Program-made: the position numbers and the translations under genes
NCBI RefSeq assembly: GCF_000007225.1
Contig: NC_003364.1
Span: 1,560,001-1,592,000 of the forward strand
Direction of reading: 5' to 3'
DNA: 32,000 bases
Source of the DNA: Pyrobaculum aerophilum str. IM2
GTDB taxonomy: Archaea > Thermoproteota > Thermoprotei > Thermoproteales > Thermoproteaceae
Shown: piece by piece, positions 631 through 26,575 of the stretch
How positions within the stretch are numbered: position 1 is the first letter of the stretch
Layout of the letters: every line of letters begins with the position of its first letter
The notes under the pieces: model-generated
Database searches by the model: none
What the model was told of the DNA's origin: nothing
Seen by the model: only the letters and a program-made list of their open reading frames with translations

Positions 631-2034
631 ATGTATGACGTTGTAGTCCTCGGGGGCGGCAGCGCTGGCGTGGCCGCCGCCGTGAAGGCGGCGCAACTAG
701 GGGCTAAAGTAGCCGTTGTAAACTCAGGGCCTCTCGGGGGTACTTGTGTTAATGTTGGCTGTGTGCCCAGCAAATTTCTCATCAGAGCGGCTCAGCTAAA
801 ACGCTACGCAGAACGCCCCTTCTTCAAGGGCATTTCCGCCAAAGTGGAGGTGGCTTTTGACGCGCTGTTGCAACACATGAAGGAAGTGGTGGAGGAGTTG
901 CGCAGGGAGAAATACGAGGAGGTTTTGAAGTATTACGACGTCGACATTATAGAGGGATACGGCTACTTAAAAGATGCAAAGACCGTGAAAGTAGGGGAGA
1001 GGGAGGTGCGGGGCGAGAAGATAATAGTGGCCACTGGGGCCAGGCCTAGGGTGCCTGAGATCCCGGGCCTTAAAGAGGCCATGGCGCGAGGGATGGCCTT
1101 CACCAACGAGGAGTTTTTTAAACTTGATCATATGCCCAGCTCTATAGTGTTTATCGGCGGCGGCGCCATAGCCGCCGAGCTGTCGCAAGCGCTGGCGAGG
1201 CTGGGGATAGAGGTGGCCGTAATATACCGCAGCTCTTTTTTAAAATACGAGGAGGAGATTGCCTCCAAATTCGTCGAAGAGCTTTTAGCAAACGAAGGCG
1301 TCCGCTTAATAAAAGCCGCGGTCACTGCGGTGGAAATTAGGGGCAGGGAGGTGGAGGTGAGACACTCAGGGGGCTCCGTTAGGGCCGAGGCCCTCTTCGT
1401 GGCGGCTGGAAGGGCGCCCAATATTGAGCCGCTTGGGGGCCTCCTAAAACTGGGGCCTAACGGCGGCGTTTTAGTCAACGAGAGGATGGAGACCTCCCTC
1501 CCAGGCGTTTACGCCGCGGGAGACGTCACGGGGGGTTTAGAGGGCGCGCGCTTCTTAGAAAACGCCGCCGCCAGACAAGGCGTTGTGGCGGCGGTAAACG
1601 CCATGGGGGGAAATGCCAAGTTCAACCCCCTGGCGGTTCCCCGCGTGGTCTTCACAGATCCGGCAGTCGCCAGCGTGGGCCTCAGGGAGGAGGACATGAT
1701 TAAAGGCGGCATAGGGTGTCGTTGTAGAGCCGCGCCTATTGAGGCAGTCGCGGCAGGGTGGACTAAGGGGCAGACAACGGGGTTTATAAAAATCAACACA
1801 TACCCAGAGACTTGGAAAGTATCTGTAAAGAGGGGGAAAATAGCGGGAGCTTTAGTCGTTGCGCCGGAGGCAGAGGAGTTAATAAACGTCTTCGCCATGG
1901 CGATTCAGCTGGGGCTCACGGTAGAAGACTTGATTGAGTGGCTACCCAGTTTCCCCTCTTACGGAGAGGCCCTGAGGCTGGCCGCGCTTGCCTTTTATAC
2001 AGATCCCACTAAACTGAGCTGTTGCGGCGGGTAA
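631..2034 (+). CDS. merA: mercuric reductase-like pyridine nucleotide-disulfide oxidoreductase (MerA family, no N-terminal HMA domain)
   Basis: 467 aa. FAD fold VVVLGGGSAGVAAA; redox-active disulfide motif GGTCVNVGCVPSK; second dinucleotide fold VFIGGGAIAAE. The C-terminus, ...YGEALRLAALAFYTDPTKLSCCGG, carries a vicinal Cys pair like the MerA tail ...LSCCAG. Confidence 0.75.
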   Translation: MYDVVVLGGGSAGVAAAVKAAQLGAKVAVVNSGPLGGTCVNVGCVPSKFLIRAAQLKRYAERPFFKGISAKVEVAFDALLQHMKEVVEELRREKYEEVLKYYDVDIIEGYGYLKDAKTVKVGEREVRGEKIIVATGARPRVPEIPGLKEAMARGMAFTNEEFFKLDHMPSSIVFIGGGAIAAELSQALARLGIEVAVIYRSSFLKYEEEIASKFVEELLANEGVRLIKAAVTAVEIRGREVEVRHSGGSVRAEALFVAAGRAPNIEPLGGLLKLGPNGGVLVNERMETSLPGVYAAGDVTGGLEGARFLENAAARQGVVAAVNAMGGNAKFNPLAVPRVVFTDPAVASVGLREEDMIKGGIGCRCRAAPIEAVAAGWTKGQTTGFIKINTYPETWKVSVKRGKIAGALVVAPEAEELINVFAMAIQLGLTVEDLIEWLPSFPSYGEALRLAALAFYTDPTKLSCCGG

Positions 2035-2189: not shown

Positions 2190-2516
2190 ATGGAGATAGA
2201 TTACGCCGGGCTGAAGCACTTTGGCGTTGACGGCGAGCCGATAGGGGCGGATAGAGTCGGCGAGTTTCTCAAAATCCCCGGCGTTGTGGTAGACAAGCTG
2301 GCGCCGGGACAACACGTCGACTTTGTAACCCTGAGAGTTAGACATGAGGGAAAAGGCGTGGTCTCCTTCGCCAAGTCGCACCACGCCTTCGTCGAGCTGT
2401 TACGGCTTGAGCCAGGGGACGCCTTCCTTCTGTACTGCACATGCCCGATAGTGGACAAATTCCTAGTCATAACCAGAGAGGGAGAAACGGTTAAGCTGAT
2501 TTACAAAAGGCTTTGA
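2190..2516 (+). CDS. hypothetical small protein (108 aa) with a CTC motif (LYCTCPIV)
   Basis: The plus-strand frame has GC-rich third positions like the neighbouring genes and its own TATA-like box. The minus-strand alternatives (2142..2384, 2201..2470) look like shadow ORFs. The 3' end overlaps the convergent SQR-like gene by 16 nt. Confidence 0.5.
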   Translation: MEIDYAGLKHFGVDGEPIGADRVGEFLKIPGVVVDKLAPGQHVDFVTLRVRHEGKGVVSFAKSHHAFVELLRLEPGDAFLLYCTCPIVDKFLVITREGETVKLIYKRL

Positions 2517-3691
2517 GCCTCTAAAATTATTTTTTTCATCGCGTTCATCCACTGGTATTTCGCCTCGGCGTTTTCTCTTGAGGGGCCGTAGATATTTCGC
2601 CACAATATGTCGCCGTATATAGGCCACCACGCCTTTGCGCCTCTAACAGCCTCTTGGGGAGTTAGCCTAACGGCGTCTTCGCTGTATAAAAATCCCGGGG
2701 GTTTAGCCTCTAGCCCCATATCCTCTAATATTTTGGCGGAGGCCACTAACGCCTCATAAAAAGCCGCCCATCCGGTCTTTACCACGTGCCACACCACATC
2801 GCCTACTGCATATATATCGTCCCAGCCCAGCGCCCTCATATTGTCGTCTACTCTAATATAGCCAAATTCCCCCTCCCTCGCAAGCCCTGCCTCCACCAGC
2901 CACGGCCACCCCCTATGTGGAGGAGTCCACACGAGGCTGTCATATTTCACCACATCGCCGTCGTCTAATACCAACTCATTGGCCCGCACCTCCACCACCT
3001 CGTGTCCTCCGATAAAACCTATTCCCCTCTCTTCCATTAAAGAGGCTACCTTATCGCCCAGCCCGGATATTTGGTGTACAAACTCCGCCGGTATTTCCTT
3101 TACGCCCGAGACTACAGAGATCTCGGCCTGTGGATTTAGCCACTTTATTAAAAAGGCCATTTCATAAGGCGCAGAGGTGCATCGATAAGGCAAACCTGGG
3201 TGGGCAATTACCACGCGGCCGCGTGCATTTCTCAACGCGCCTATATTAGACAGGACGTTACTATCATCGTAAATATTTACATATTTTGCGCCCGGCTCAA
3301 TTGAGACATCCTCATACGCCAGCCTAATCCCCGGGGCCAGCACTAAATAGCGGTATTGAAAAACGCCTGCTGTAGTGTAGACAAGCCTATTGCCGGGATC
3401 CACTGCAAACGCCTCCCCCCTTATGTATTTCTCAAACCTCGTGGCATATTCCCCAGGCTGAGCCAAGCCGAGGACAATATCCTCCTTAGCAGGGCCCACG
3501 ACGTAATATTCGCCCCTCTCTATTACTACTACGTCTAAACCCTTTAGGTTTTTTACAATTGTAGATCCCGCGAGGCCTCCCCCCACTACAACCACGTCGG
3601 CTTTTCTAATACGGGGTCTTGTCAACAAATAGCCGCCGACAGCGCCCGCGGCAATGGCGGCGACGAATTTTAGAAAATCTCGCCGTTTCAT
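2501..3691 (-). CDS. Tat-signal FAD-dependent oxidoreductase, sulfide:quinone oxidoreductase / flavocytochrome-c sulfide dehydrogenase-like
   Basis: 396 aa. The N-terminus MKRRDFLKFVAAIAAGAVGG has a twin-arginine motif plus a hydrophobic segment. It is followed by the FAD fold VVVVGGGLAGS. YRCTSAPYEMA resembles the xKCPGAPxE motif of the SQR family, and AVGDV...KTG lies near the C-terminus. The protein has only one Cys. Its start forms an ATGA overlap with the upstream gene. Confidence 0.75.
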   Translation of the reverse strand: MKRRDFLKFVAAIAAGAVGGYLLTRPRIRKADVVVVGGGLAGSTIVKNLKGLDVVVIERGEYYVVGPAKEDIVLGLAQPGEYATRFEKYIRGEAFAVDPGNRLVYTTAGVFQYRYLVLAPGIRLAYEDVSIEPGAKYVNIYDDSNVLSNIGALRNARGRVVIAHPGLPYRCTSAPYEMAFLIKWLNPQAEISVVSGVKEIPAEFVHQISGLGDKVASLMEERGIGFIGGHEVVEVRANELVLDDGDVVKYDSLVWTPPHRGWPWLVEAGLAREGEFGYIRVDDNMRALGWDDIYAVGDVVWHVVKTGWAAFYEALVASAKILEDMGLEAKPPGFLYSEDAVRLTPQEAVRGAKAWWPIYGDILWRNIYGPSRENAEAKYQWMNAMKKIILEAQSLL

Positions 3692-4443
3692 AGACTATGA
3701 TAAGCGTGTACCGCTGGGTGGTAGAGGTGGATTAACACCTCAGGCACGGCGTATAACATAACGCCGCCGAAGAGAGAAGCCCAGAATTTATACGAGCTAA
3801 GTCCCCCCATTAAAGAGGCGGCCACTAAATTATTTCTAAACATGGCGTATACTATCAACGCGGCTGATCCCGCCTGTGCGGTCGCCAATATGAGCCTGGG
3901 GTATATGTCTGTAGAGAGAGGAGGCAATACCCAATATGAAAGCCAGCCGGCGGGGAAAGTTATGGCAGGTACGGGCCAAGTCTTAAGAGCTGATTTTGTA
4001 GACGACGCCACAGCCCTCAGCACGAAAACCTCAACTCCTGCGAAAGTTATTAAGCCTGATAACAACAGCGGCTCTGCCAGCTCTGAATATCTGGGTAAAG
4101 AGTATACAGCTGAGGCAATCATTAGGCCGTAGGAGTAGTTATACAGCCCAAGCCCCAGGGCTAGGGCATCGCCGGGGCTGACTTTAGTGCCAGCCCTTAG
4201 AAAAACTAGGAAAGCAGCCGAGGTTATAATTACTGCATATAAGAAAAGCGGAATGAGATTCACAGGCCAGGCTACTGCAAGAGACTTGGGGAGGGAAGAG
4301 GCGTTGCCCCCAGCCATAAGAGCCATATGAGCCGCGGCCCCGCCCGCAATTGCGTAAACATACGGCCTAGTCCCCACTCTGAGCAATGGGAAAAACAGAA
4401 AATAAACAAAGAGGAAAAAGAGGGGTTCTTTTATGAAAATCAT
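3688..4443 (-). CDS. polytopic integral membrane protein (about 8-9 hydrophobic helices), unknown family
   Basis: I place the start at the ATG at 4443, which forms an ATGA overlap with the stop of the 4440..5738 gene. The ORF-track start at 4530 would overlap that gene by 91 nt. The C-terminal tail is His-rich: HLYHPAVHAYHSL. Confidence 0.6.
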   Translation of the reverse strand: MIFIKEPLFFLFVYFLFFPLLRVGTRPYVYAIAGGAAAHMALMAGGNASSLPKSLAVAWPVNLIPLFLYAVIITSAAFLVFLRAGTKVSPGDALALGLGLYNYSYGLMIASAVYSLPRYSELAEPLLLSGLITFAGVEVFVLRAVASSTKSALKTWPVPAITFPAGWLSYWVLPPLSTDIYPRLILATAQAGSAALIVYAMFRNNLVAASLMGGLSSYKFWASLFGGVMLYAVPEVLIHLYHPAVHAYHSL

Positions 4444-5738
4444 CTCCCCCAGATTTTTAGCCACTCGCCAGAGGGAATAGCCACAACCCATACTGCGGCA
4501 TCTGCCTTGAAATGTTTTACTACGGACCATGTTGATGTGTCAAGAACGACTAATCCACCTGCCCCGGCGAGATAAAAATACTTACCGTCTTGGCTGAACA
4601 CCCCCTGCACCGCGCTCTTTAAGTAATCTGGAACTACTTTAACCTCTTTAATTACTTGGTATGACGGCGGAAGAGATCTCACGTATACCCCAACGCCTGA
4701 CACCACAGTAACTACCTCATCCCTGGCCGGATTTTCAACAGCCATATATGCTATAGACGGATAACTGACCTCTTTTATAAGCCACGCAGTACCTCTATTT
4801 ACATCTATTTCTAACACAGCCTCATAGGGCTTGGTCTCGCTCTGTAGTATTCCGTATTGTGGCTTGTAATAACTCCAATAAGTCATGAAGGGCTCTGTAT
4901 ACGTCTGCTCTCCTGGCTTCTTGAAATAATATCTAGCCACCTCTCTCCCAGAGGGCACTTCTAAAACTAAGCCGTATTCAGGTTTATTTGGATCTTGATC
5001 TGCTTTCACTGGTATAAAGACGTACTTCCCGTCTGGAGAAGGCGCGACGTCACACGGATTAGCGTCTAAATTTACCACGTTGACTATCTCCATTTTCTGG
5101 AGGTCAATAAACACCACCCTTTGGGCTTGTCTTTGGCTGATAATTAAATACCTGCCATCTGGCGTGACGCCGGCGTACTGTCTAGTGAATTTATCATAAG
5201 TCTTCATAAGCTTTATATCTCTAAACGTCACTCTGTCAATAAAGGCGACATATGAGCCGTTGGGGTTTTCAAATAGTAAAATAAAATACGGCAAATTCCC
5301 CAGGAAATATCTCGGCGTCCACGTCTCTAAAGTGCTGGGCTTTGCCAGTCCCTTAAGGGTAGCGTATAAAACCTCATACACTGGAGAGCTGAGGGTGTAT
5401 TTCAAATCGATTTTAGCCACTACGTCGTTAGTAGAGGGGTCAATAACATATGCGTATAGGACATCCCCCTCTCTTATAGCTGCGTATACCAGACCGCGCG
5501 GCTTTACTTGTTGTTGCAACGCCTTTATTTGCTCCTCCCTCTGGGCCAGCGTCTTGTTAAGCTCTGTTATTTTAGTCTGTAGTTGGGATAGCTCCGACTT
5601 AAGCGTATCGGCCTCGGCTTTGGCTTTGCTGAGTTCTTGGGATAACTGCGCCACTTGGGAGGCATATTGTGTATACACTGCGACTAGCGCTATGAGAAGG
5701 ACGACAATAATTACTACTAAGATATAAGTCGCCTTCAT
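4440..5738 (-). CDS. membrane-anchored coiled-coil plus beta-propeller (YVTN/lactonase-like repeat) protein
   Basis: 432 aa. N-terminal TM helix YILVVIIVVLLIALVAVY, then about 60 aa of heptad-like sequence (QELSKAKAEADTLKSELSQLQTKITELNKTLAQREEQIKALQQQ). Recurring propeller-type motifs follow: TPDGRYLIIS, SPDGKYVFIP, SQDGKYFYLAG. Confidence 0.7.
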   Translation of the reverse strand: MKATYILVVIIVVLLIALVAVYTQYASQVAQLSQELSKAKAEADTLKSELSQLQTKITELNKTLAQREEQIKALQQQVKPRGLVYAAIREGDVLYAYVIDPSTNDVVAKIDLKYTLSSPVYEVLYATLKGLAKPSTLETWTPRYFLGNLPYFILLFENPNGSYVAFIDRVTFRDIKLMKTYDKFTRQYAGVTPDGRYLIISQRQAQRVVFIDLQKMEIVNVVNLDANPCDVAPSPDGKYVFIPVKADQDPNKPEYGLVLEVPSGREVARYYFKKPGEQTYTEPFMTYWSYYKPQYGILQSETKPYEAVLEIDVNRGTAWLIKEVSYPSIAYMAVENPARDEVVTVVSGVGVYVRSLPPSYQVIKEVKVVPDYLKSAVQGVFSQDGKYFYLAGAGGLVVLDTSTWSVVKHFKADAAVWVVAIPSGEWLKIWGR

Positions 5739-5739
5739 A

Positions 5740-6804
5740 TTATCCGCCGCAGGCTAGGGCTATTTGTCTCTTGCCGCCTAGCTGCACTGCTACTCCAGAG
5801 GCGCCGCTTTTCACAGCCACGTCGTAAAGCATTACATCAAGCTGCACAGTGTGGACGTTAAGAGACGGCACGAGTATCATGTGTAGCGCGCTGTCGCCGA
5901 CGATATACACTAAGCTACAAGTGGGATCGGCCCTAACCCTCAATCCCCCTACGTCAAGTGTCTTTATTAGTGATAAGTCTGGAACTCTCAGGGCATACGT
6001 CTTATCTGCGGTGATCACCAACATTATGCCTCTACAAGCCCGTAGATATTGGACCTCCCCACCCACTGTGGCCCTGGATATCTGCTTGCCGCTGAATCTC
6101 TCAAAGGAAATTACGTCATTGCCCTTAGCCACAAAGAAGTAGTAGGCCCCTACGAATAGCTTATCGCCGCCAACTCCGAACTCCCTCAGCTGCTCAAGAT
6201 CTTCTGAGAGGACATAAAGTTTTTCTCCCGTTAGAACATATACCTCATTCTCATCTGGCATGGCCACTAGATCTCTCACATCACTGATTTTTTCACTACC
6301 CTTTTCCTCTAATTCAGGAACGCCGAGCCTATAGATACCCTCCTCGGCCCCAACATAAATATCATTCCCCATTAGTGATGCCGCCTTAATTCCCTTGATA
6401 TACAGTCTAGTATATATATCTTGACCTTTAATTACATATACATATTCAGAAGAAATAAATATAGTATATCCTGCGACATCGCCTACATAAATTATTTTCT
6501 CATTTAAATTTAGAGGTTGTACAAGTAATTGTGTACCCATGGGAGTTAACATAAGTGATTTGTCCGCAGTATATGCCACTAGGTAAATGTCGGGAGGTGG
6601 AGCCTGTGCCTCAGATAGTAGTTTATAGGCATATTGCAGAGTGCCTGTATGTACGTAATAACCCACGGCTATTCCTATGGCTAGCCCTATAGCAATTCCC
6701 AATAGGATGTAACTGCTACGTTTTTCCTTCTTTACAGGTTCTTCAAGCGGGATCTCGGCCATGATATGCCATGTCTCATAATTTAAAAAATATTTTGTTA
6801 ACAT
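5740..6804 (-). CDS. membrane-anchored beta-propeller-like protein ending in a C-terminal Cys-Gly-Gly tail
   Basis: 354 aa from the ATG at 6804. An alternative ATG at 6762 (MAEIPLEEP...) also has a TATA-like box about 26 nt upstream. TM helix YILLGIAIGLAIGIAVGYYV. The remainder is a repetitive beta-rich sequence (IYVG, VYVL, LFVG and similar). The C-terminus reads ...GGKRQIALACGG followed by the stop. The stop lies 1 nt from the next gene's ATG. Confidence 0.65.
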   Translation of the reverse strand: MLTKYFLNYETWHIMAEIPLEEPVKKEKRSSYILLGIAIGLAIGIAVGYYVHTGTLQYAYKLLSEAQAPPPDIYLVAYTADKSLMLTPMGTQLLVQPLNLNEKIIYVGDVAGYTIFISSEYVYVIKGQDIYTRLYIKGIKAASLMGNDIYVGAEEGIYRLGVPELEEKGSEKISDVRDLVAMPDENEVYVLTGEKLYVLSEDLEQLREFGVGGDKLFVGAYYFFVAKGNDVISFERFSGKQISRATVGGEVQYLRACRGIMLVITADKTYALRVPDLSLIKTLDVGGLRVRADPTCSLVYIVGDSALHMILVPSLNVHTVQLDVMLYDVAVKSGASGVAVQLGGKRQIALACGG

Positions 6805-6820
6805 GTTCTTAGTTCACTAG

Positions 6821-6840
6821 TTAATAACATATTTATATGG
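6821..6840. promoter_or_regulatory. shared AT-rich divergent promoter region containing the near-palindromic element CATATTTATATG
   Basis: It lies in the 52-bp gap between the divergent starts at 6804 (-) and 6857 (+), roughly 20-30 nt from each. Confidence 0.4.
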
Positions 6841-6856
6841 AAAATTGAGGCGAGAC

Positions 6857-7102
6857 ATGCCTAGCATTAAAAAAGTAGGTGATAATCTCTACGAGCTAGA
6901 CTTAAAGGGATATGTGTGTCCCTATCCGCAGATGTACACATCACAAGCACTGTCGAAACTGCCAAAGGGCAGTGTGTTAAAGGTTATAATAGATAATCCC
7001 CCCTCTATAGAGAACATAAAATCAGTGGCCCAGAAGGCCGGCGCAAAGTCTCTTCAAGTAGAGGCTAAGGGCGGCACGTGGGAGATCACAATTAACATAT
7101 AA
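6857..7102 (+). CDS. tusA: TusA/SirA-family sulfur carrier protein
   Basis: Canonical motif LDLKGYVCPYPQMYTSQAL (Cys-Pro-x-Pro) at the TusA position, followed by VLKVIIDNPPSIENI. I prefer the ATG at 6857 over the TTG at 6845, which sits only about 11 nt from the TATA-like box. Confidence 0.8.
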   Translation: MPSIKKVGDNLYELDLKGYVCPYPQMYTSQALSKLPKGSVLKVIIDNPPSIENIKSVAQKAGAKSLQVEAKGGTWEITINI

Positions 7103-7109
7103 TTAACTT

Positions 7110-7484
7110 ATGAAAGTAGGCGTAATCTTAACCTCTGACGACCCTGTGAAGCTGTACGAGGCTGGGACATATATAGCAACAGAGCTGGCCAGGGGGAATG
7201 AGGTGGTCGTTTTCGTCACGGGGAGGGCCACGTTGGCATTTGCGGGGAGGGCTGAGGTCTCGGAGACTCCGGAGGTTAAGAGGATGAAAGAGCTTCACGT
7301 AATGTGGGATGAGCTCTTCTCAGCTGCGAGGCCTATGGGCGTTAAGGTAATTGCGTGTGAAACCGCTAGTAAAATATTCGCAGTGGGCGAGGAGGAGTAC
7401 AAGAAAACAGGACTTGTAGACGTTGTGTCTTCTATGTATACCTTCTTAGAAGAGGTGGGCGAGGGAAGGGTTGTGGTGTTTTAA
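7110..7484 (+). CDS. DsrE/DsrF-like sulfur relay family protein
   Basis: 124 aa. The N-terminus MKVGVILTSDDP...VVVFVTGRA has a DsrE-like Rossmann-type beta-alpha pattern, and there is a single conserved-looking Cys in VIACETASKIF. It lies between tusA and yeeE with 7-nt and 1-nt gaps. Confidence 0.65.
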   Translation: MKVGVILTSDDPVKLYEAGTYIATELARGNEVVVFVTGRATLAFAGRAEVSETPEVKRMKELHVMWDELFSAARPMGVKVIACETASKIFAVGEEEYKKTGLVDVVSSMYTFLEEVGEGRVVVF

Positions 7485-7485
7485 T

Positions 7486-8733
7486 ATGCCGTTGCCCAAG
7501 TTTTTAAAAGAGCCGTGGAGGCCCGAGGTCGCGGGGGCTCTCATCGGACTAGTCGCCGTGTTGCAAATAATTGTCGTGAGGAGCCCGTGGTATATCACCG
7601 GCCCTGAGAATCAATTCGGAGGGTGGCTCTTCTACGTCCTCACAGGCGGATTATTAAATACAAAAGAGTGGGCATATTTTAATCCTAACTCCCCCATGTT
7701 CGTCGCGCCGGCCGCCGCGCCTTGGGAGCCGGCTAATAAGGAGTTTATGATCGTATGGGGGTTTATGCTAGGTGCCATGATCGCAAAGGCCATAGAGGGC
7801 AACTGGCGCCTTAGATGGCCTGCTAATAGGATGGTGGTATTACTGTCAATCATTGGCGGCCTTATGTTAGGCTTCGGCGCCAGGCTGGCGTTGGGATGTA
7901 ACGTGGGGAATTTCGTCGCCACTATTCAGTCCCTGGTCTTCTCGGGCTTTGTCTTCTTCCTGGGGATGGCCGTGGGTACTTTCATCTCTACGCGGCTTAT
8001 TGAAGATTTCTTAATGGAGAAAATGCACAAGTCCAAGCCTATTAGAATTGAATTGGGTTCTAATGTAGACAACCGTAAAGTATTGGCCTTCGCCCTAGCC
8101 GCAACCCTATTAACTACCCTGTATTGGTGGGGCCTTGGGATTTGGGCCGCTATCGCCTTCCTTTATCTGGGAATAGCATATGGCTTCTTCGGCTCTAAAG
8201 GCAATGTTTGCTTCACCTCTATGTTGAGAGACGGCTTTTGGTCGAGGCTAGCCCCCTACGGCGGAAACGCCAGGGCCATAGCCATAGCATTGGCCATTAT
8301 GATAACCGGAAACCTCGTGTTAAAATACGGCTTTGGGTGGCAGTACAGAGAGTTCTTATTCCCAGTGGGTGTTCACACTTTCCTCGGAGGCGTCCTCTTC
8401 GGCATAGGTATGGTTTTGGTGGCTGGCTGTAGCTTTAGTAGCGCTTATAGAAGCGGCGAGGGTAGCATACCGCATTTAATAGCGTGGTTTGGAATGGTGG
8501 CAGGCATGACAATATTATCTTACGTCTGGCCCTTCTTTTTCACTACGTCAATTTACTTATCTCCAGTGTTGCACTTTTACGACTTCTTTGGCGGAAATGT
8601 CGCCGCAGGCGCCGCCGCGGCTTATTCAGTGGCGTTATTCATCGCGCTTGTGGGGAGTTGGAGAGACGGCACATTACAGCGCTTAGTGCAAATACCTCCC
8701 TTAAAAATATTGGCGCCACGGCTCCATGTATAA
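7486..8733 (+). CDS. yeeE: YeeE/YedE-family sulfur (thiosulfate) transport membrane protein
   Basis: Polytopic membrane protein with Cys-containing motifs RLALGCNVGNF, GNVCFTSMLRDG and LVAGCSFSSAYRSGEG, as in the two-repeat YeeE/YedE architecture. The start is set at the ATG at 7486, 1 nt after the DsrE-like stop; the ORF-track start at 7471 is a TTG. Confidence 0.8.
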   Translation: MPLPKFLKEPWRPEVAGALIGLVAVLQIIVVRSPWYITGPENQFGGWLFYVLTGGLLNTKEWAYFNPNSPMFVAPAAAPWEPANKEFMIVWGFMLGAMIAKAIEGNWRLRWPANRMVVLLSIIGGLMLGFGARLALGCNVGNFVATIQSLVFSGFVFFLGMAVGTFISTRLIEDFLMEKMHKSKPIRIELGSNVDNRKVLAFALAATLLTTLYWWGLGIWAAIAFLYLGIAYGFFGSKGNVCFTSMLRDGFWSRLAPYGGNARAIAIALAIMITGNLVLKYGFGWQYREFLFPVGVHTFLGGVLFGIGMVLVAGCSFSSAYRSGEGSIPHLIAWFGMVAGMTILSYVWPFFFTTSIYLSPVLHFYDFFGGNVAAGAAAAYSVALFIALVGSWRDGTLQRLVQIPPLKILAPRLHV

Positions 8734-9904
8734 AAAACTTCTTTTTTCTTTAATTCCGCTGCTCCTCCTTCTTCTTTTTTTAATCCCAAGCCCCCAGCCG
8801 CCGAGTGAAGATACGTTTATAGTAGTGGGCGGGGGCCCGCCCTCAATTGCCCTATACGTAAACGGAGTTTATGTGGGCGGCGCCGCTCTAAACGACGTGT
8901 GGCCTAACTATACAATGTACGACGCGTTTCTCTGGGGAGATAAGCTAGTAGTCACCATAGCTGAAGTGAGTAAATGGGTGTACGTCTTCCACCTCCCCGA
9001 TTTCTCAAGGCCTGCTGTTGTGTTGAGAGCGCCGGGCAACGTGAGCCACTTCCTTTACTATACCCCGGAGGTGGCGCCGCTGAACGGATCTATCCTTTGG
9101 CTTGCAGTTTTTAACACAACTGAAAAACGGGGCTATATCTGCGCTTTAGATTTAGTGAATGAAGTCATTCAAAACTGCGTGCCCGTGGGGATTTACCCGC
9201 ACGCCCCCATTAAGCTGGGCTCTTCGGTAATTACTCCGCTTATAAGAGAGCCGTATTTAGTGTTTAAAGAGGGGGGGCGGATAGAGAGAAGGCTTGTCTC
9301 GAAGAGCTGGCCGCCGTATGTAAACGCCCACGATCCGCTTAGATATACATATTTCTCTTTCCACATGATTACCACAGACGGGCGTTATATATACGGCGAA
9401 GGCCACGCCATAGAGCCTGGGTATTTGCTATCGCCTATAACTGTCCACGCCCACTCGTATATAATTTCCATGACCCCCTCAGGGGAGGTTATTGCTTATT
9501 ATCCAACCTCAGCGCTTCCGCCTGGGCTACCGGGGCTGGCTGTGTGTAGGGGAAAGCTCTTTGCCACATCTCCCCTGGAGGGTGTGGTCTACGTCTTGTC
9601 CACGCCGGAATTAAAGCCTTTGTCTCTTTTAAAAGTCGGCAAAGTGCCATGGGGAGTCTTCGCAAATAGGGATTGTAGCAGAGTGTATGTTACTGACATC
9701 ATAGGCGGGTTTGTTTATGTAATAGACGTCGAAAGTCTATCTATAGTTAGGCGTGTAGAAACTCCAATGACGTGGCCCCACACAGTTATATTTATCGACA
9801 ACGCGGCCGCGGAGAGGCTAAAGACCGCCGTCTCTAAGAGATTCGCCTATAACTTTACTGTCTTTCCGCCTATACTCTCATGCGGAGATCTGCCGCCGAG
9901 CTGA
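8726..9904 (+). CDS. secreted YVTN-type beta-propeller repeat protein, His-rich
   Basis: Signal-like N-terminus MYKKLLFSLIPLLLLLLFLIPSP. A canonical YVTN-type repeat: VGKVPWGVFANRDCSRVYVTDIIGGFVYVIDVESLSIVRRV. Several N-x-S/T sequons and nine His residues, including VHAHS. Overlaps the yeeE stop by 8 nt. Confidence 0.7.
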   Translation: MYKKLLFSLIPLLLLLLFLIPSPQPPSEDTFIVVGGGPPSIALYVNGVYVGGAALNDVWPNYTMYDAFLWGDKLVVTIAEVSKWVYVFHLPDFSRPAVVLRAPGNVSHFLYYTPEVAPLNGSILWLAVFNTTEKRGYICALDLVNEVIQNCVPVGIYPHAPIKLGSSVITPLIREPYLVFKEGGRIERRLVSKSWPPYVNAHDPLRYTYFSFHMITTDGRYIYGEGHAIEPGYLLSPITVHAHSYIISMTPSGEVIAYYPTSALPPGLPGLAVCRGKLFATSPLEGVVYVLSTPELKPLSLLKVGKVPWGVFANRDCSRVYVTDIIGGFVYVIDVESLSIVRRVETPMTWPHTVIFIDNAAAERLKTAVSKRFAYNFTVFPPILSCGDLPPS

Positions 9905-10506
9905 AATACATACTCCTAATTACTGCCGTCTTTGCCGCTTTGTTGCTATTCCCTGTCTATTCCTCTCTATTTGTAAACAACAGCAGTGCGGCTGGAGGCT
10001 TGGGGCAAGCGTCGCGGATAACAGTGGAGTGTTACGAGCCGGGGGCGGAACCCACAGCGCAGGATTTTATACTGGTGAACCAGTTTAACAAGACAGTGGC
10101 TCTAAGCCAGTTGTGGGAGACGCCTACACTTTTAATTTTCGCCTATACCTATTGCCCTGACGTGTGTCCTATTATAAACCTTGTTTTAAACGCCACTAGG
10201 CCGAAGTTGCCCGGGGTGATAATCGCCGAAATTACCTTAGATCCCGAGAGGGATACTCCCCAGCGACTATACGCCTACAGCGTTGGGAATAAATACAACT
10301 GGACTTTCCTCACAGGCCCCCGTGAGGTGTTAGAAAAAGTGTGGCGTAGCTACGGCGTTATAATAGAGCGCCGTGGAGACTATATAGCCCATAATGTTTT
10401 GTTTATAGTGATACACAAGGGGAATATTTTGGGAGTAATTAAGGGGTTGCCGCCGCCAGAGGATTTGGCTAAAAACGTCGAGAGGATACTTAGGAGATGC
10501 CGATAG
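9880..10506 (+). CDS. SCO1/SenC-family thioredoxin-fold copper chaperone/thiol-disulfide protein, membrane anchored
   Basis: N-terminal TM helix ILLITAVFAALLLFPVY; signature FAYTYCPDVCP (CxxxC); a downstream His in DYIAHNVLFIV, as in SCO proteins. Overlaps the upstream gene by 25 nt. Confidence 0.8.
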   Translation: MRRSAAELKYILLITAVFAALLLFPVYSSLFVNNSSAAGGLGQASRITVECYEPGAEPTAQDFILVNQFNKTVALSQLWETPTLLIFAYTYCPDVCPIINLVLNATRPKLPGVIIAEITLDPERDTPQRLYAYSVGNKYNWTFLTGPREVLEKVWRSYGVIIERRGDYIAHNVLFIVIHKGNILGVIKGLPPPEDLAKNVERILRRCR

Positions 10507-11184: not shown

Positions 11185-11745
11185 CTAGAGGAAGTCCACT
11201 ATTACGTTATTAGCCGCGTGGTAGAGAAAACAGCTCCATGTGGATTTAGTATATAGGAAGAGGCCGCCCGCAATTAAGGCCCAGAAGAAAATATAGACGG
11301 AGAGCGCCGGGCAGAACCGTAAGTGTATAGCCGCGAAGGCGGCTGAGGTAATCAGCAAAGCCCCCGCAGTCCCCACTGCTTTATTTAGCCTGGGCATGGA
11401 GTATCCTCTGAAAAAGCCCTCTTCAAAAAAGGCGGCTCCCAAGGCCCATATGGCCACGGGAACTGCGTTTAGCCCCGATGTGGAATATCCCCATTTCGGC
11501 CACGACATGCCCAGGGCTGACAGCATTAAGTTTATAGGCCACCACAACATAAAGGCGGCGCCTAGAGCCGCAAACGCGTATAGAATTTCCCTGCGCCCCA
11601 GGCCGCCTGTGTAAATACTCCGGAAAGCCCCACTCCAAGTGCCGTACCCCTCAGCCCGGGTTATTGCCAAGAGAAGGACAAAGCCTATTACCTGCGCCGT
11701 TGTGTACAAGAGGGCGTACCAGGGGTTGTCCGGCGGCGGCTGCAT
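11185..11745 (-). CDS. CPBP-family (CAAX/Abi-like) intramembrane glutamic endopeptidase
   Basis: Motifs FFEEGFFRGY (EExxxR), FAAIH and YHAANN within a multi-TM protein. Confidence 0.75.
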   Translation of the reverse strand: MQPPPDNPWYALLYTTAQVIGFVLLLAITRAEGYGTWSGAFRSIYTGGLGRREILYAFAALGAAFMLWWPINLMLSALGMSWPKWGYSTSGLNAVPVAIWALGAAFFEEGFFRGYSMPRLNKAVGTAGALLITSAAFAAIHLRFCPALSVYIFFWALIAGGLFLYTKSTWSCFLYHAANNVIVDFL

Positions 11746-13862: not shown

Positions 13863-14824
13863 TGGCCAATATGGCAAAGGCCATTAACATGGCGCTTCAC
13901 GAAGAAATGGAGAGAGATGAAAGAGTAGTGGTGCTGGGAGAAGACGTGGGGAAAAAGGGAGGGGTTTTCCTCGTGACTGAAGGGCTTTATGAGAGGTTCG
14001 GCCCGGAGAGAGTTATAGACACGCCGTTAAACGAAGGGGGGATTTTAGGGTTCGCCATGGGAATGGCCATGGCGGGGCTGAAGCCCGTGGCCGAGATACA
14101 ATTCGTCGACTTCATCTGGCTAGGCGCTGATGAGCTTTTAAACCACATAGCCAAACTGAGGTATAGGTCCGGGGGGAATTACAAGGCCCCCCTCGTCGTG
14201 AGGACTCCCGTCGGCTCGGGCACAAGAGGCGGGCTTTACCACAGCCAATCCCCAGAGGCCATCTTCGTCCATACGCCGGGCCTAGTTGTGGTCATGCCCT
14301 CGACGCCGTATAACGCCAAGGGCTTATTAAAAGCCGCCATTAGGGGGGATGACCCCGTGGTATTCCTCGAGCCCAAAATACTATACAGAGCCCCCAGGGA
14401 GGAGGTGCCCGAGGGGGACTACGTAGTGGAGATAGGCAAGGCTAGAGTGGCCAGGGAGGGCGACGACGTCACTTTAGTGACCTACGGCGCCGTGGTACAT
14501 AAAGCGCTGGAGGCGGCCGAGAGGGTAAAGGCGTCGGTAGAGGTTGTGGACTTACAGACTCTCAACCCCCTTGATTTTGACACTGTGTTAAAAAGCGTTT
14601 CTAAAACCGGCAGGCTTATTATAGCACACGACTCGCCGAAAACGGGAGGGCTCGGCGCAGAGGTGGCGGCGCTAGTAGCAGAGAAGGCGCTAGATAGACT
14701 GACGGCGCCTGTAATTAGGCTTGCGGGCCCTGACGTCCCCCAGAGCCCAATTGCCCACGACGCGGCCTACGCCCCCACGGTGGAGAGAATAATAAAGGCC
14801 ATAGAATACGTGATGAGGTACTAA
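13859..14824 (+). CDS. 2-oxoacid dehydrogenase E1 component, beta subunit
   Basis: The N-terminus [31 protein letters not shown] is typical of E1beta. The ATG at 13859 forms an ATGA overlap with the E1alpha stop; the ORF-track start at 13844 is a GTG. Confidence 0.9.
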
Positions 14825-19148: not shown

Positions 19149-20018
19149 GTGGAGATCGAACTACTCCTGAAGGGGTTGTGGACGAGGGACGGGGCGGGGG
19201 TGAGGCTGTACAGAGTATTCGGCGATCCCACGCTGGCTGAGCTGACAGATCCATTTCTACTACTTGATCATTTCGGCTCCCGATATCCCCATGAGTATTT
19301 GGCGGGATTTCCCTGGCATCCCCACAGGGGGATTCAGACAATAACCTACCTCCTGAAAGGCGAGGTTCACCACGAGGACTCAGAGGGGAATAGGGGGGTG
19401 TTGGGCCCGGGGGATCTCCAGTGGATGAACGCGGGCTCTGGCATTTTCCACTCAGAGATGCCTAGGCCTTATAGGCAAGACCCGGAGGTCTCGGGCTTTC
19501 AGCTGTGGGTAAACTTGCCTAGGGCGAAAAAAATGTCCGATCCCTTCTATAAAAACTTAAAGAGCGGCTCTATGCCCAAGCTGAGGACAGATGAGGGGGC
19601 CACAGTGAGGCTTATATCGGGGAGGCTCAGAGAGCCCGGCACCGGCGTGGTGGAGGGGCCTGTTAAAGAGTTGCCAATTCCCGTGATTTATATGGACGTG
19701 GAGCTGCCCGCGGGGGTTGAATTCGCCTTTGAAGTAGAGGAGGGCTGGAGGACTCTGGTATATAACTTCGGAGGCCCGGCAGTTGTGCAAAAAAAGCGAA
19801 TTGAGGATAAAAGCCTCGTAATAATGTCCACAGACGGCGGAGTGCTCACTGTGCGCGGGCCCACGCGCTTTCTATTACTCTCCGGCAGACCTATAGGTGA
19901 GCCCATTGCGTGGAGGGGGCCAATTGTAATGAATACGTGGGAGGAGATAAGACAAGCTTTTTTAGAGCTAGAGAGGGGCACCTTCATTAAGAAAAGAGCC
20001 TCTGTGGAGGATATATGA
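19149..20018 (+). CDS. pirin-family bicupin protein
   Basis: Motif HPHRGIQTITYLLKGEVHHEDSEGN (the pirin metal-binding His cluster). The 289-aa size is typical. GTG start. Confidence 0.85.
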   Translation: MEIELLLKGLWTRDGAGVRLYRVFGDPTLAELTDPFLLLDHFGSRYPHEYLAGFPWHPHRGIQTITYLLKGEVHHEDSEGNRGVLGPGDLQWMNAGSGIFHSEMPRPYRQDPEVSGFQLWVNLPRAKKMSDPFYKNLKSGSMPKLRTDEGATVRLISGRLREPGTGVVEGPVKELPIPVIYMDVELPAGVEFAFEVEEGWRTLVYNFGGPAVVQKKRIEDKSLVIMSTDGGVLTVRGPTRFLLLSGRPIGEPIAWRGPIVMNTWEEIRQAFLELERGTFIKKRASVEDI

Positions 20019-20812
20019 TACTCATCGCCACTGAAGACGGCGTGTACGACCTCAGTGGAAAAAGGCGGTGTTGCAAGGGGAAAGAGGTGTACGACCTCCT
20101 CGAGGATTACTTCTGCGCTTGGGAGGGGGTGTACAAACTGCCAACAGAGGAGAAGATAGAGGGGAGATCTTGCTGGCGCCTCGTGAAGGCAGAGGACAGG
20201 ATATACGCCTCTATAGAGGGGCCTGTCCTCCTCGATTTGCACAGAGGGAGGGAGATAGATCTCAGCCGTTTTGCCAAGGAGCTGGGCTGGCACTTCCCCC
20301 ACGGCCCCCCGCACATAACTGACGTAACGCGTTTTAAAGAGGAGTGGATTGTTGCAGTGGAGGTGGGCCATATGCTGGCCGGTCCCAGCTTAGAGGAGCT
20401 AAAGCCCCTGGGATTTAAACACGACCAGCACAACCTCCTCCCCCATGGCCGTTTCCTACTAGTCGCCACGGCCGCCGGCATTTATTACACGGCGGATTTA
20501 TCCAATTTTGCCTTTGCCGAGGGCAGCGCCGGCTACGCACACGCCCTCCTTTACTGCAGAGGGCGGCTGTACAGCCACGTTATGAAAAATACTCCAATAA
20601 TTGAAAGCGCAGACGGCAGACAGTGGCGTAATCTCGACATTATTAAGCTTCCCCCGCCCACATTCGGCACCACGGCGCTGGGGTGTTATAACGCGGAGTT
20701 GATATACTCAACCACATCTACTTATGTAATACGCGATGGAGATCGCGATGTAATATTAAAAGGGCATCCAATGACCAAGAGGGTAATAGTGGAGGGGAGT
20801 AAATTCCTCTAG
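20015..20812 (+). CDS. hypothetical protein, possibly beta-propeller/BNR-like
   Basis: 265 aa with an ATGA overlap with the pirin stop. One Asp-box-like motif, SADGRQW. The large antisense ORF 19688..20371 is judged a shadow ORF. Confidence 0.55.
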   Translation: MILIATEDGVYDLSGKRRCCKGKEVYDLLEDYFCAWEGVYKLPTEEKIEGRSCWRLVKAEDRIYASIEGPVLLDLHRGREIDLSRFAKELGWHFPHGPPHITDVTRFKEEWIVAVEVGHMLAGPSLEELKPLGFKHDQHNLLPHGRFLLVATAAGIYYTADLSNFAFAEGSAGYAHALLYCRGRLYSHVMKNTPIIESADGRQWRNLDIIKLPPPTFGTTALGCYNAELIYSTTSTYVIRDGDRDVILKGHPMTKRVIVEGSKFL

Positions 20813-22220: not shown

Positions 22221-23069
22221 TTATTTAGTCCCAGCCTCTTCCTTTTCCTCTTTTCTGCGCTGGCGCCAAGCCGCTATGCCGGCTATCGTCAAACCCACGG
22301 CCAGCAACGCCCCTCCGTATAAAGTCAGCGGCTTTAACACCTCTCTTATTTGTTGTGCAGCCCGCGGGCTTGCGTTAGAGAAGTGTTGCTTAACCGCAAA
22401 GGCCCTCCTATCCGATGTCACATATATCCAACGGACTGAGCCGCCAACATAATCGTTTACCTCAAGCCCGTAGACATATCTTCCGCGCCTCTGCTCTTCC
22501 CTTGCCTTGGCTATAACTTCGCTAGCTGGGCCAAATGTGAACACATTCGTTGGACATACCTCTACGCACGCAGGAGCGCGGCCGTTTTGAATCCTATCTA
22601 CACAGAAAGTACACTTGTAGTATCTTCCATCAGATCCCTTCTTGGGGACGTCATATGGACAGGCGGCTTCGCAGTATCCACATCCTATACACTCTTCTTT
22701 ATTTATAACGACTGCCCCCTCGCCAGTGACTTTAATCGCACCGACGGGACAAGCCCTGGCGCACGGGGCAGCGGCGCAGTGCATACAATTGTACGGCAAG
22801 GGCGCCAATTCAAACTGGCTGAAAGTCACTTCTCCAGCAGGCGTCATTAACTTCTTGCCAGTTTTGCCCTCATAGAAGAACACAACCTTCCAGTCCTCCG
22901 CCGTGAGCCATTTAGGCAACGTGAGAGATCCCGCAAACTCCGTCTTAACCGCCGGCCTTCCGTTCCAGTCTTTACAAGCCACTTGGCAAGCGCGGCATCC
23001 AATACACTTGTCTATATCCACAAGCACCGCGACTCCTTCGTTGGGCTTGGGGAAGGTCAGGGACACCAT
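22221..23069 (-). CDS. 4Fe-4S ferredoxin-type electron-transfer subunit (FdnH-like beta subunit) with C-terminal TM anchor
   Basis: Four Cys clusters: CIGCRACQVAC, CMHCAAAPCARACP, CIGCGYCEAACP and CTFCVDRIQNGRAPACVEVCP. C-terminal helix LTLYGGALLAVGLTIAGIAAW. The start is set at the ATG at 23069, 2 nt after the alpha-subunit stop; the ORF-track start at 23108 is a TTG inside the alpha gene. Confidence 0.85.
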   Translation of the reverse strand: MVSLTFPKPNEGVAVLVDIDKCIGCRACQVACKDWNGRPAVKTEFAGSLTLPKWLTAEDWKVVFFYEGKTGKKLMTPAGEVTFSQFELAPLPYNCMHCAAAPCARACPVGAIKVTGEGAVVINKEECIGCGYCEAACPYDVPKKGSDGRYYKCTFCVDRIQNGRAPACVEVCPTNVFTFGPASEVIAKAREEQRRGRYVYGLEVNDYVGGSVRWIYVTSDRRAFAVKQHFSNASPRAAQQIREVLKPLTLYGGALLAVGLTIAGIAAWRQRRKEEKEEAGTK

Positions 23070-23071
23070 AG

Positions 23072-26000: not shown

Positions 26001-26575
26001 ATTTGAATTGGGACGTTTCTCCCCACGTAATAATACCCGTCTTTTTGCTTCGGGGAGCCAGTGGAGGCCCTCCACTCGTTTAGAATTCTCGCCAGTCTGT
26101 TGGCTACTAACTGCAATGCCTCATCCCACGTGGCCTCCCTCCACATAGGAGGATATTTCCTGACTACTGCGATTAGCTCATCCCAGCTTTTAGCCGCTAG
26201 AATCTCCTCGGGGGGTGGTTTCGGCCCCGTCCTAATTAAGGGCTTTGTTACGCGTAAATCGTTTTCCACTAACTGAAACGCCGCCTTGCCCTTTGGGCAC
26301 AACGCCCCCCAGTTAATAGGCGAATCAGCAGATCCCCTACTCCACACTATCCTCCCCCCTGAGACGTATAAGTCTATAGAACACCCGACGGAACAATAGG
26401 GGCATATTACAGGAGTCACAGTAGCCTTTGGAAGGTCTAACTTGCCGCCGATCTCTCCTATTTCCCACGTGGCCTTTGTGGCCTTGAAGGGGACTTGTGC
26501 CTCCGCCCCTATGCTTAAAGCTGACGTGGCTAAGGCGGCCAGTTTTAAAAACCCTCTTCTCGTAACTGCCGTCAT
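23072..26575 (-). CDS. Tat-exported molybdopterin (Mo/W-bisPGD) oxidoreductase catalytic subunit, formate dehydrogenase-N (FdnG)-like, Cys-type
   Basis: 1167 aa. Tat signal MTAVTRRGFLKLAALATSALSIGAEA. FeS motif CPYCSVGCS...CPKG. RKCHSSTVSSLAVTYGWGA aligns by eye with FdnG ARV-Sec-HGPTVASLAPTFGRGA, with Cys at the Sec position. FRGHSNVQGANDVQG corresponds to FdnG LRGHSNIQG. Confidence 0.9.
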   Translation of the reverse strand: MTAVTRRGFLKLAALATSALSIGAEAQVPFKATKATWEIGEIGGKLDLPKATVTPVICPYCSVGCSIDLYVSGGRIVWSRGSADSPINWGALCPKGKAAFQLVENDLRVTKPLIRTGPKPPPEEILAAKSWDELIAVVRKYPPMWREATWDEALQLVANRLARILNEWRASTGSPKQKDGYYYVGRNVPIQIIGSSILVNEEAYLSKKLATYLGTSNMDSQYRKCHSSTVSSLAVTYGWGAETASIEDVALADVVLFWSSPAEAHPLSFAYFLKGKRERGTIFITFDPRYSRTAAASDLWVPFRPGTDTAILLYILHYAFFERNPPIDQLDEFQRLRSRWNITDDDLADLKELLKEYDADTVSNISGVPKDLLRTVASIYVENSGVVTNHEKHGIIQWAMGFTQHTNATINIIRAAAIVQLLLGNVGYPGGGTHPFRGHSNVQGANDVQGGGVDGLPGYHGFPASVFEIRLYQDWKLQGMPDAWNWSVPEWARASFSTTAPDAGKADLSKVLQVFKFYGWRRFELAWRMFCGTIPEDDPQNGVVVCDFPLGTGTTEVVFPRRALAGEIKAAFVFGENPAVTNPNAKIIMAGLAALDLLVVSDIFETETAWFADVLLPAASFAEKEGSRTNGNRVIQWSYRAVPPKGDSRPDYWIITKLYQYLRREGAVVLPSEVAGVKKEEVKFRKGGKLVFVYERPLRPDNSWDYSGGTGKSAPISPIEAEVNPRIIYKEINFTTLIYQGIYDPIRDEIITMKRIAQLRRPGQIDGTFSSKFEVYKDWGWSWPMNVRFLYNYDSLKAVLGVTDKVYAAGREWEVAGETGEWIDEYTGEYKPAFIPGHNFWVPRSFKRRLSGVADVYGGMDIMHFIKTGEVRILGKFIVEEGGEVKTLTYEEYVARTGMKYLWVNDSLYWDADTTSFKAALKRPFFSGGDWRSFKPVYQKMRDLLGQYYSQFGNLKDAVLKVISDMGGWYKGYSFQWPIHTEPVESPLPELAVRYPSLAWLNPYNLQVLQDQPDIVKGKNVGVALTPDDLKDIPGELVVITSNRLTEHFHGGSMSRNVPYLAELAPEPFVYLPRALAERLGVKSGDYVDVITLRGGLRMKAYVTDGEAYLTVNGKELPVVNVIWAFSFEGYVTGPQGNFLNPDVGDVVTTIQESKAWIGKIRKASLA

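Follow-up and report, generated by a model that had tools for sequence, protein, structure and literature searches.

A membrane-anchored beta-propeller with a conserved C-terminal cysteine tail, encoded within a candidate sulfur-transfer module of Pyrobaculum and Thermoproteus

The window analyzed here is a stretch of 32,000 nucleotides from Pyrobaculum aerophilum str. IM2 (contig NC_003364.1, positions 1,560,001 to 1,592,000), and positions are counted from its first letter. The protein of interest, denoted here as the target, is encoded on the minus strand by an open reading frame (ORF) at positions 5740–6804. Direct translation from the first ATG provides 354 residues that end in ...VQLGGKRQIALACGG, followed by TAA. 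An earlier note on this DNA had described the product as a membrane-anchored beta-propeller ending in ALACGG and had likened this ending to the cysteine arms of SoxY and MerA. The ending was confirmed, with the C-terminal residues reading V-Q-L-G-G-K-R-Q-I-A-L-A-C-G-G-stop, and the interpretation was supported in part. The target is composed of a short N-terminus (predicted to be cytoplasmic), one transmembrane (TM) helix, a conserved juxtamembrane helix, a seven-bladed beta-propeller, and a flexible tail that carries a cysteine. Three cysteines are present, C257, C296, and C352 (ORF numbering), and the codon for C352 is located at positions 5749–5751. The reading that is tentatively preferred, at somewhat less than even confidence and by analogy with known carriers, is that the tail serves as an outward-facing, tethered cysteine arm that carries sulfur adducts to a relay of YeeE, TusA, and DsrE proteins encoded next to it. 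The findings rest entirely on computation.

The ORF listed in the earlier note exists, but its start is probably not the true one. All of the orthologs begin at the residue equivalent to M15 of the target (MAEIPLEE...), for which the ATG is found at positions 6762–6760, and an A/T-rich, TATA-like stretch is located approximately 23 nt upstream of this codon. On these grounds the true coding sequence most likely spans positions 5740–6762 and the real product contains 340 residues. The first 14 codons of the ORF (MLTKYFLNYETWHI, positions 6804–6763 on the minus strand) are missing from all of the orthologs and overlap the likely promoter, and therefore the listed start appears to be 42 nt too far upstream. 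A/T-rich, TATA-like elements are found 20–35 nt upstream of each of the two start codons that flank the intergenic region, and this region is a putative promoter region of both divergent operons.

The target gene opens an operon of four genes on the minus strand, in which adjacent genes are separated by gaps or overlaps of 1–4 nt. It is followed by genes for a second anchored propeller, which starts 1 nt after the stop codon of the target, a polytopic membrane protein, and an exported flavoprotein. The divergent genes on the plus strand encode a TusA-like protein, a DsrE-family protein, a YeeE/YedE-family transporter, and a third propeller. The coordinates of these features are presented in Table 1. 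All eight genes are found together in every locus of sufficient length, and their order takes three different forms. The first order is shared by the window, P. ferrireducens (L001), T. uzoniensis (L002), and a metagenome-assembled genome (L005), and a short metagenome contig (L006) agrees with it as far as it is present. The second order is found in P. oguniense (L003) and the third in P. calidifontis (L009). Because the co-occurrence of the eight genes survives rearrangement, there is strong evidence from gene content that they form a functional module. The neighbors outside of the eight genes, which include MerA, SCO1/SenC, a molybdopterin oxidoreductase, and Pirin, are not conserved. No description of the eight-gene cluster or of its locus tags was found in the literature that could be searched, and this archaeal module is considered to be previously undescribed.

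Table 1. Positions of the target gene, its principal features, the other genes of the module, and neighboring genes within the window
Feature	Position	Strand	Evidence and remarks
Target coding sequence (anchored propeller with Cys tail)	5740–6762	-	most likely start; 340 aa from M15; ORF as listed extends to 6804
C-terminal tail, residues 335–354	5743–5802	-	variable Gly/Ala-rich linker followed by conserved nonamer; pLDDT < 50
Two other invariant cysteines, C257 and C296	5917–6036	-	C257 in A-C-R-G, codon 6034–6036; C296 in D-P-x-C, codon 5917–5919
TM anchor, residues 32–51	6652–6711	-	predicted from hydrophobicity scan, positive-inside bias, and AlphaFold2 helix
Divergent intergenic region	6763–6856		separates the target operon from the TusA operon; read directly from the sequence
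Second anchored propeller	4440–5738	-	TM helix, coiled coil of ~55 residues, YVTN-like propeller; one invariant Cys, C229
Polytopic membrane protein	3688–4443	-	~251 aa from M30; no known family
FCSD/SQR-like flavoprotein, TAT-exported	2501–3691	-	Pyr_redox_2 (Pfam, E 5e-19); TAT signal, TIGR01409 above cut-off
TusA-like sulfur carrier	6857–7102	+	81 aa, ATG at 6857; Pfam TusA E 2e-20; V-C-P-Y-P motif, Cys25
DsrE-family sulfurtransferase	7110–7484	+	invariant C83
YeeE/YedE-family sulfur transporter	7486–8733	+	415 aa; Pfam Sulf_transp E 1e-38; invariant C143, C247, and C320 (ORF numbering)
Third propeller (target paralog)	8726–9904	+	signal anchor; low-confidence tail with L-A-C-G-D
MerA	631–2034	+	TIGR02053 629 bits, above cut-off; ends SCCGG, C464–C465
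ORF with C-T-C motif	2190–2516	+	108 aa; no known family
SCO1/SenC protein	9880–10506	+	membrane-anchored, thioredoxin fold, C-P-D-V-C
CPBP/Rce1-like (CAAX protease family) protein	11185–11745	-	intramembrane protease
Pirin and Cys-/His-rich ORF	19149–20812	+	second ORF 265 aa, no known family
Molybdopterin oxidoreductase and 4Fe-4S subunit	22221–26575	-	large subunit 1167 aa

The target family was assembled from several searches. A word-indexed search of 5.8 billion proteins returned 11 relatives, and a profile search run exhaustively over 1.84 billion cluster representatives yielded only seven full-length clusters. One further member is present in the genome of P. calidifontis. A scan of genome contigs returned P. 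oguniense alone and added no taxonomic breadth. The resulting set contains 15 sequences, with identities down to 38%, and within the reach of these searches the family is very small and confined to the hot-spring archaea Pyrobaculum and Thermoproteus. Three metagenomic proteins of 62–98 residues (P0014, P0015, and P0016) bear only the juxtamembrane helix and the first strands (G-T-L-K-Y-A-Y-S-L-L...P-P-P-D-L-H-L-V-A-Y) and probably come from target genes that have been truncated or have decayed.

All 15 members of the family terminate in [RK]-[QK]-[IV]-[AV]-L-[AS]-C-G-G or in the same motif without the last glycine. The residues R346, L350, C352, and G353 of the tail are invariant, as are C257 and C296. 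The expectation that the terminal C-G-G is invariant among orthologs was therefore borne out for the cysteine and the first glycine; the last glycine is absent from three homologs. One of these three shorter endings lies within its contig, which indicates that the C-G ending is natural. The nonamer R-Q-I-A-L-A-C-G-G is encoded at positions 5743–5769, and its conservation (0.90) is the second highest among all 9-mers of the target. The conservation of the Gly/Ala-rich stretch of 12 residues that precedes it is 0.54, equal to that of an average propeller position. Across eight loci the codons of the tail vary freely at synonymous sites. This variation, together with the different gene found downstream in P. 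oguniense, places the constraint on the encoded peptide rather than on the DNA. The alignment thus indicates that the motif is not a chance ending and that it is under selection as a peptide. Retention of the last codons as a nucleotide or translational-coupling signal for the abutting gene was considered and rejected on the same two grounds.

A structural model of the target was obtained using AlphaFold2 with an alignment of 12 sequences (predicted TM-score, pTM, 0.71). It contains 28 strands that form seven four-stranded blades between residues 73 and 333, mostly at a predicted local distance difference test (pLDDT) value above 90; from approximately residue 100 to residue 330 the value exceeds 90. 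The beta-propeller described in the earlier note is supported by this model and by a Foldseek search of the PDB, in which only generic seven- or eight-bladed propellers were matched (BamB, WD40, NirN, and Dtox_1751; E ~1e-10, probability 1.00). No Pfam or NCBIfam model was matched above threshold by the target sequence; the sole match was to B-prop_COPA_B_2nd at 14.7 bits (cut-off 57), and there was no NCBIfam match. A profile search of the PDB with the target family likewise gave no match. The overall fold of the YVTN- and YncE-type propellers (the YVTN domain 1l0q of an archaeal S-layer protein, E. coli YncE, and BamB) matches that of the target, but these proteins do not have the three-cysteine pattern or the conserved cysteine tail, and the target falls below the sequence thresholds for YVTN and YncE.

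The single N-terminal TM helix proposed previously was recovered in the hydrophobicity scan and in the model, where a helix at residues 30–66 comprises the TM segment (residues 32–51) and a nearly invariant juxtamembrane helix (T-L-Q-Y-A-Y-K-L-L). The 15 residues before the TM helix contain one to four lysine and arginine residues (two to four in 14 of 15 homologs), and those after it contain none or one in all 15. This bias predicts an N-in/C-out topology, by which the propeller and the tail of the target would face the outside of the cell. The extracellular tail proposed in the earlier note is supported by this predicted topology and by the TAT or signal-anchor N-termini of the operon partners. 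The Gly-Gly thiocarboxylate chemistry of ThiS, MoaD, and SAMP-like proteins was considered and rejected, since it needs ATP-dependent activation in the cytoplasm and the C-terminus of the target is predicted to be outside.

The tail (residues 335–354) has pLDDT values below 50. A buried or immobile tail had been named previously as a sign against a mobile arm. The modeled tail is not buried, and its mobility is suggested only indirectly, by the low confidence of the model. A conserved peptide at the end of a variable Gly/Ala-rich linker, with pLDDT values below 50, fits a tethered arm. In two consecutive four-strand repeats close to the C-terminus, the turn that follows the first strand contains C257 and C296, respectively, and from these modeled strand boundaries they would be on the same face of the propeller, close to the central axis. 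There is no invariant histidine in the 15 sequences, and the three cysteines dominate the invariant polar residues. Rhodanese-like chemistry at the A-C-R-G motif was also rejected, since this motif occupies the turn of a beta-hairpin within a propeller blade and is not part of a rhodanese cradle.

The third propeller and the target are paralogs. In an hhalign comparison, residues 251–319 of the target align with residues 268–342 of the third propeller (E 5e-5, probability 67%), such that C257 matches C274 and C296 matches C317. The invariant cysteines of the third propeller are C139, C151, C274, C317, and C386, and its invariant histidines are H108, H159, H227, and H352; C139 and C151 are 12 residues apart. 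Its tail carries an invariant L-A-C-G-[DE] and is poorly ordered in the model (pLDDT 66, then 53, then 37). By these alignments, the tail cysteine of the target is part of a three-cysteine pattern common to both paralogs. The fold neighbors of the third propeller include the zinc chaperone AztD and NosZ, and within the trio of propellers it may have the catalytic or the metal-binding role. Its orthologs are labeled by NCBI as "YncE family protein".

Three conserved thiols in two paralogs are also what would be expected if C257, C296, and C352 formed a trigonal thiolate site in which Hg(II), Cu(I), As(III), or another soft metal or metalloid is bound. The target would then be an extracellular metal-binding or chaperone propeller that echoes MerP and the tail of MerA. 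The four invariant histidines and the fold neighbors of the third propeller are in keeping with this function. The MerA gene is located 0.5 kb from the flavoprotein gene in the window, a MerA-like gene follows the flavoprotein gene in the metagenome-assembled genome (L005), and the SCO1/SenC gene overlaps the end of the third propeller. However, neither MerA nor SCO1 flanks the module in P. ferrireducens, T. uzoniensis, or P. oguniense, whereas TusA, DsrE, YeeE, and the flavoprotein are constant members. The target also has no invariant histidine, methionine, or acidic cluster, and the single tail cysteine differs from the vicinal pair of MerA. A metal site is thus regarded as decidedly improbable. 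The overlap of the SCO1/SenC gene is found in this window only; its product may assist the arm cysteines in the manner of SoxS or DsbA, or may act as a copper chaperone.

The likeness to MerA that was drawn in the earlier note holds in part. The MerA-like protein of the window is a true MerA that passes the TIGR02053 cut-off and ends in SCCGG as had been stated, and in the MerA/MerP systems thiols on a mobile C-terminal segment hand the ligand to the active site of a flavoprotein. The target, however, has one tail cysteine and no vicinal pair, has no Pyr_redox domain, is predicted to be extracellular, and is not a pyridine-nucleotide disulfide oxidoreductase; nor is the adjacency of MerA to the module conserved. 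There is no kinship with MerA.

The three proteins encoded at the start of the plus-strand operon form the presumptive cytoplasmic side of the module and the channel that leads to it. The three cysteines of YeeE proteins, the C-P-x-P motif of TusA, and the cysteine of DsrE are all present, as in a sulfur import relay. The Pfam matches are above cut-off, and none of the NCBIfam equivalog cut-offs is attained. With the YedE/FdhT selenium model the transporter gives 151 bits, compared with 85 bits for TsuA, and both values are below the curated cut-off. The TusA-like protein scores best against the YedF model, ahead of TsuB, and is also below cut-off. Because the YedE/YedF scores exceed those for TsuA/TsuB, the chalcogen could be selenium, and the same mechanism would then apply with an arm that carries a selenosulfide or selenopersulfide to an importer of the YedE/YedF type. 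Several species of Pyrobaculum respire selenate or selenite, which is in accord with such a substrate. A YedE-like protein has been implicated in selenium transport in Methanococcus, in work cited within PMC11582611. Against selenium, all of the scores are far below the family cut-offs, and DsrE and the FCSD-like flavoprotein are proteins of sulfur pathways. In addition, T. uzoniensis and P. calidifontis are not known to respire selenium compounds. Selenium as the cargo is therefore viewed as highly doubtful.

The exported flavoprotein with a single cysteine that the earlier note placed in the same operon was found as described, with a twin-arginine translocation (TAT) signal and C171 as its sole cysteine. 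Its closest relatives of solved structure in PDB alignments are the flavoprotein subunits of flavocytochrome c sulfide dehydrogenase (FCSD; 5n1t and 1fcd), followed by the sulfide:quinone oxidoreductases (SQRs). With FCSD (FccB/SoxF) and SQR it shares TAT export, the FAD-binding Rossmann fold, and the first redox cysteine in P-[FY]-R-C-x-x-x-P-Y-E (P-Y-R-C-T-S-A-P-Y-E in the flavoprotein and P-F-R-C-P-P-G-P-Y-E in FCSD). C171 aligns with Cys161 of FCSD and Cys178 of the SQR from A. ambivalens, and is the only invariant cysteine among six orthologs. The position of Cys337 of FCSD is occupied by the glutamate of an invariant Y-S-E-D (E338 in the window flavoprotein), and no cysteine is found in this region in any of the six orthologs. 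The cysteine of FCSD that binds FAD covalently is also absent. No cytochrome c subunit (FccA) was detected; the cluster proteins contain no cytochrome c domain, and the positions of their cysteines leave no CxxCH. By fold and first redox cysteine the flavoprotein thus belongs with FCSD and SQR, but it lacks the second redox cysteine. Its gene also differs from those of FCSD in being coupled to a novel membrane protein and to propellers that bear cysteines. Its subfamily is a tight clade of Thermoproteaceae only; the distribution of this clade follows that of the target, and a wide gap sets it apart from the other SQR-like proteins.

Since the flavoprotein retains the equivalent of Cys161 and has a glutamate in place of Cys337, a cysteine supplied by a partner is plausible. 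The L-A-C-G arm of the propeller subunits might provide this second cysteine in trans, making the complex a split sulfide or persulfide dehydrogenase. Sulfur chains would then be oxidized or built directly on the protein carrier and subsequently delivered to the YeeE channel. This more specific proposal is considered unlikely, with a modest share of the probability. If it is true, the module would be the counterpart in archaea of the SoxYZ-to-SoxT route, with no homology between the two, and would contain the first carrier-dependent member of the FCSD/SQR family.

The remaining two proteins of the outer face are the polytopic membrane protein and the second anchored propeller. The ATG of the membrane protein overlaps the stop codon of the upstream gene, and its own stop codon overlaps the start of the flavoprotein. 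Searches of Pfam, NCBIfam, and the PDB, including a profile search of the last, returned no relative of this protein. Its gene always overlaps the flavoprotein gene, and on that basis it is a candidate for the anchor or quinone site that may serve the flavoprotein.

The numbers of invariant cysteines in the outer-face subunits are all odd: three in the target, one in the second propeller, one in the flavoprotein, and five in the third propeller, in which C139 and C151 could pair locally. Such counts would suit a tail that acts as a docking peptide or a disulfide staple, where the nonamer binds in a groove of a partner, which may be the flavoprotein, the second propeller, or the membrane protein, and C352 forms a permanent disulfide within or between subunits (for example, with C257, C296, C229 of the second propeller, or C171 of the flavoprotein) by which an extracellular complex is stabilized against heat. 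In Pyrobaculum and its relatives, proteomes rich in disulfides are established. Short linear docking motifs, moreover, have the same signature, namely a conserved peptide on a variable linker with disorder in a monomer model. This explanation leaves unexplained the loss of exactly one redox cysteine from the flavoprotein and the constant tie to the relay of YeeE, TusA, and DsrE. It does not exclude a carrier, because a carrier arm must dock as well. Permanent docking or stapling as the function of the tail is judged to be somewhat unlikely, although it retains appreciable weight.

The closest functional parallel to the target is SoxY, which bears pathway intermediates on a C-terminal cysteine arm (PMC5336275, PMC11237559). 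For Hyphomicrobium it has been proposed that sulfane sulfur bound to SoxY is passed through a YeeE-like SoxT channel that contains three cysteines, and from there to TusA or a rhodanese and to DsrE3 (PMC11582611). The tail of the target is likewise predicted to be extracytoplasmic, with a single cysteine and a terminal Gly-Gly on a mobile peptide, and both proteins are genetically tied to a YeeE-family channel and to cytoplasmic TusA and DsrE. The two proteins also differ. The target is a TM-anchored seven-bladed propeller and SoxY is an Ig-like sandwich, with no kinship in sequence or fold. The ending is ALACGG in the target and VTIGGCGG in SoxY, such that the Gly-Gly before the cysteine is missing. 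The tether of the target is far longer, at approximately 18 residues, and two extra invariant cysteines are present. No SoxY domain was matched in the target in Pfam or NCBIfam at E <= 0.1, and no Sox family domain (SoxZ, SoxXA, SoxB, or SoxCD) was found in the 20 ORFs of the window that were scanned or in the loci examined. Of the hallmark invoked in the earlier note, the cysteine with a terminal Gly-Gly stands; the Gly-Gly before it does not. The resemblance to SoxY, like that to MerA, is one of analogy only. By this analogy the target would work most like SoxY, yet it is not a member of the SoxY family.

A further parallel is found in the cytoplasm. DsrC/TusE, a protein of sulfur trafficking, works through a cysteine on a highly conserved, flexible C-terminal arm. 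DsrC differs from the target in its cytoplasmic location, the two cysteines of its arm, and its fold, and the two proteins are not homologous.

The mechanism that is tentatively proposed for the tethered arm is as follows. On the outer face of the membrane would be assembled the one-cysteine flavoprotein, the polytopic membrane protein, and the three anchored propellers, two of which have the three-cysteine pattern and an L-A-C-G tail. C352 would form a covalent sulfur adduct, which may be a persulfide, a polysulfide, or a thiosulfonate. Carried by the tether, this adduct would move among the cysteines of the propeller, the flavoprotein, and the YeeE entrance, and sulfur would pass through the YeeE channel to TusA and then to DsrE in the cytoplasm. 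The role of the target would parallel that of SoxY for SoxT, TusA, and DsrE3 in bacteria. The analysis shows the sequence, its conservation, the gene linkage, the loss of one flavoprotein cysteine, and the predictions of topology, fold, and tail disorder; we infer the adduct, the identity of the arm's partners, and the direction in which electrons and sulfur would flow.

Several points weigh against this proposal. The target is not homologous to SoxY, DsrC, or any known carrier. Low pLDDT values are no proof of mobility in the tail. In the two most divergent third propellers, 12 or 13 residues follow the L-A-C-G motif; because these paralogs carry the motif internally, the extreme C-terminal position is not essential. 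A metal site or a disulfide would account for three invariant cysteines just as well. Both the transporter and the TusA-like protein favor the selenium over the thiosulfate models, as described above. The physiology of the hosts is mixed, including aerobes and strict anaerobes, and gives no clear hint on direction.

The transfer of sulfur from the outside to the cytoplasm is poorly understood in bacteria and scarcely studied in archaea beyond the Sulfolobales. The module described here is a compact and testable candidate for such a transfer, with a putative outward-facing carrier that has a single, presumably reactive tail cysteine, a seemingly incomplete exported flavoprotein, and a dedicated import line of YeeE, TusA, and DsrE. 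If the arm does carry sulfur, then a swinging arm of the SoxY type, ending in Cys-Gly-Gly, would have evolved independently on an unrelated fold, and the FCSD/SQR family would gain a carrier-dependent mechanism with a cysteine in trans. A likely context is also provided for five genes that are annotated in Pyrobaculum and Thermoproteus as hypothetical, as a generic oxidoreductase, or as "YncE family".

The CPBP/Rce1-like protease is encoded 4.4 kb from the target, and its gene is not conserved near the module elsewhere. Its presence near a protein that ends in C-G-G is probably a coincidence. It could be taken to mean that the C-G-G ending is a signal for processing or attachment, through cleavage or a CAAX-like lipidation. 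Two residues follow the cysteine (one in three homologs) and there is no CaaX box; none of the other genomes examined has the protease gene close to the module; the target is already anchored at its N-terminus; and the motif is internal in the divergent paralogs. Such a signal is accordingly held to be exceedingly unlikely.

Additional genes were noted around the module. The ORF of 108 residues with a C-T-C motif is located between the MerA and flavoprotein genes and shares 78% identity with an ORF that occupies the corresponding place in P. ferrireducens (L001, positions 14290–14616). The Pirin gene of the window is followed by the Cys-/His-rich ORF, and the same pair is found directly upstream of the module in P. 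calidifontis (L009, positions 8265–9964), where the second gene is 49% identical. Molybdopterin enzymes are encoded near the module in P. oguniense and in the metagenome-assembled genome as well as in the window, and the enzyme may be a linked respiratory reductase.

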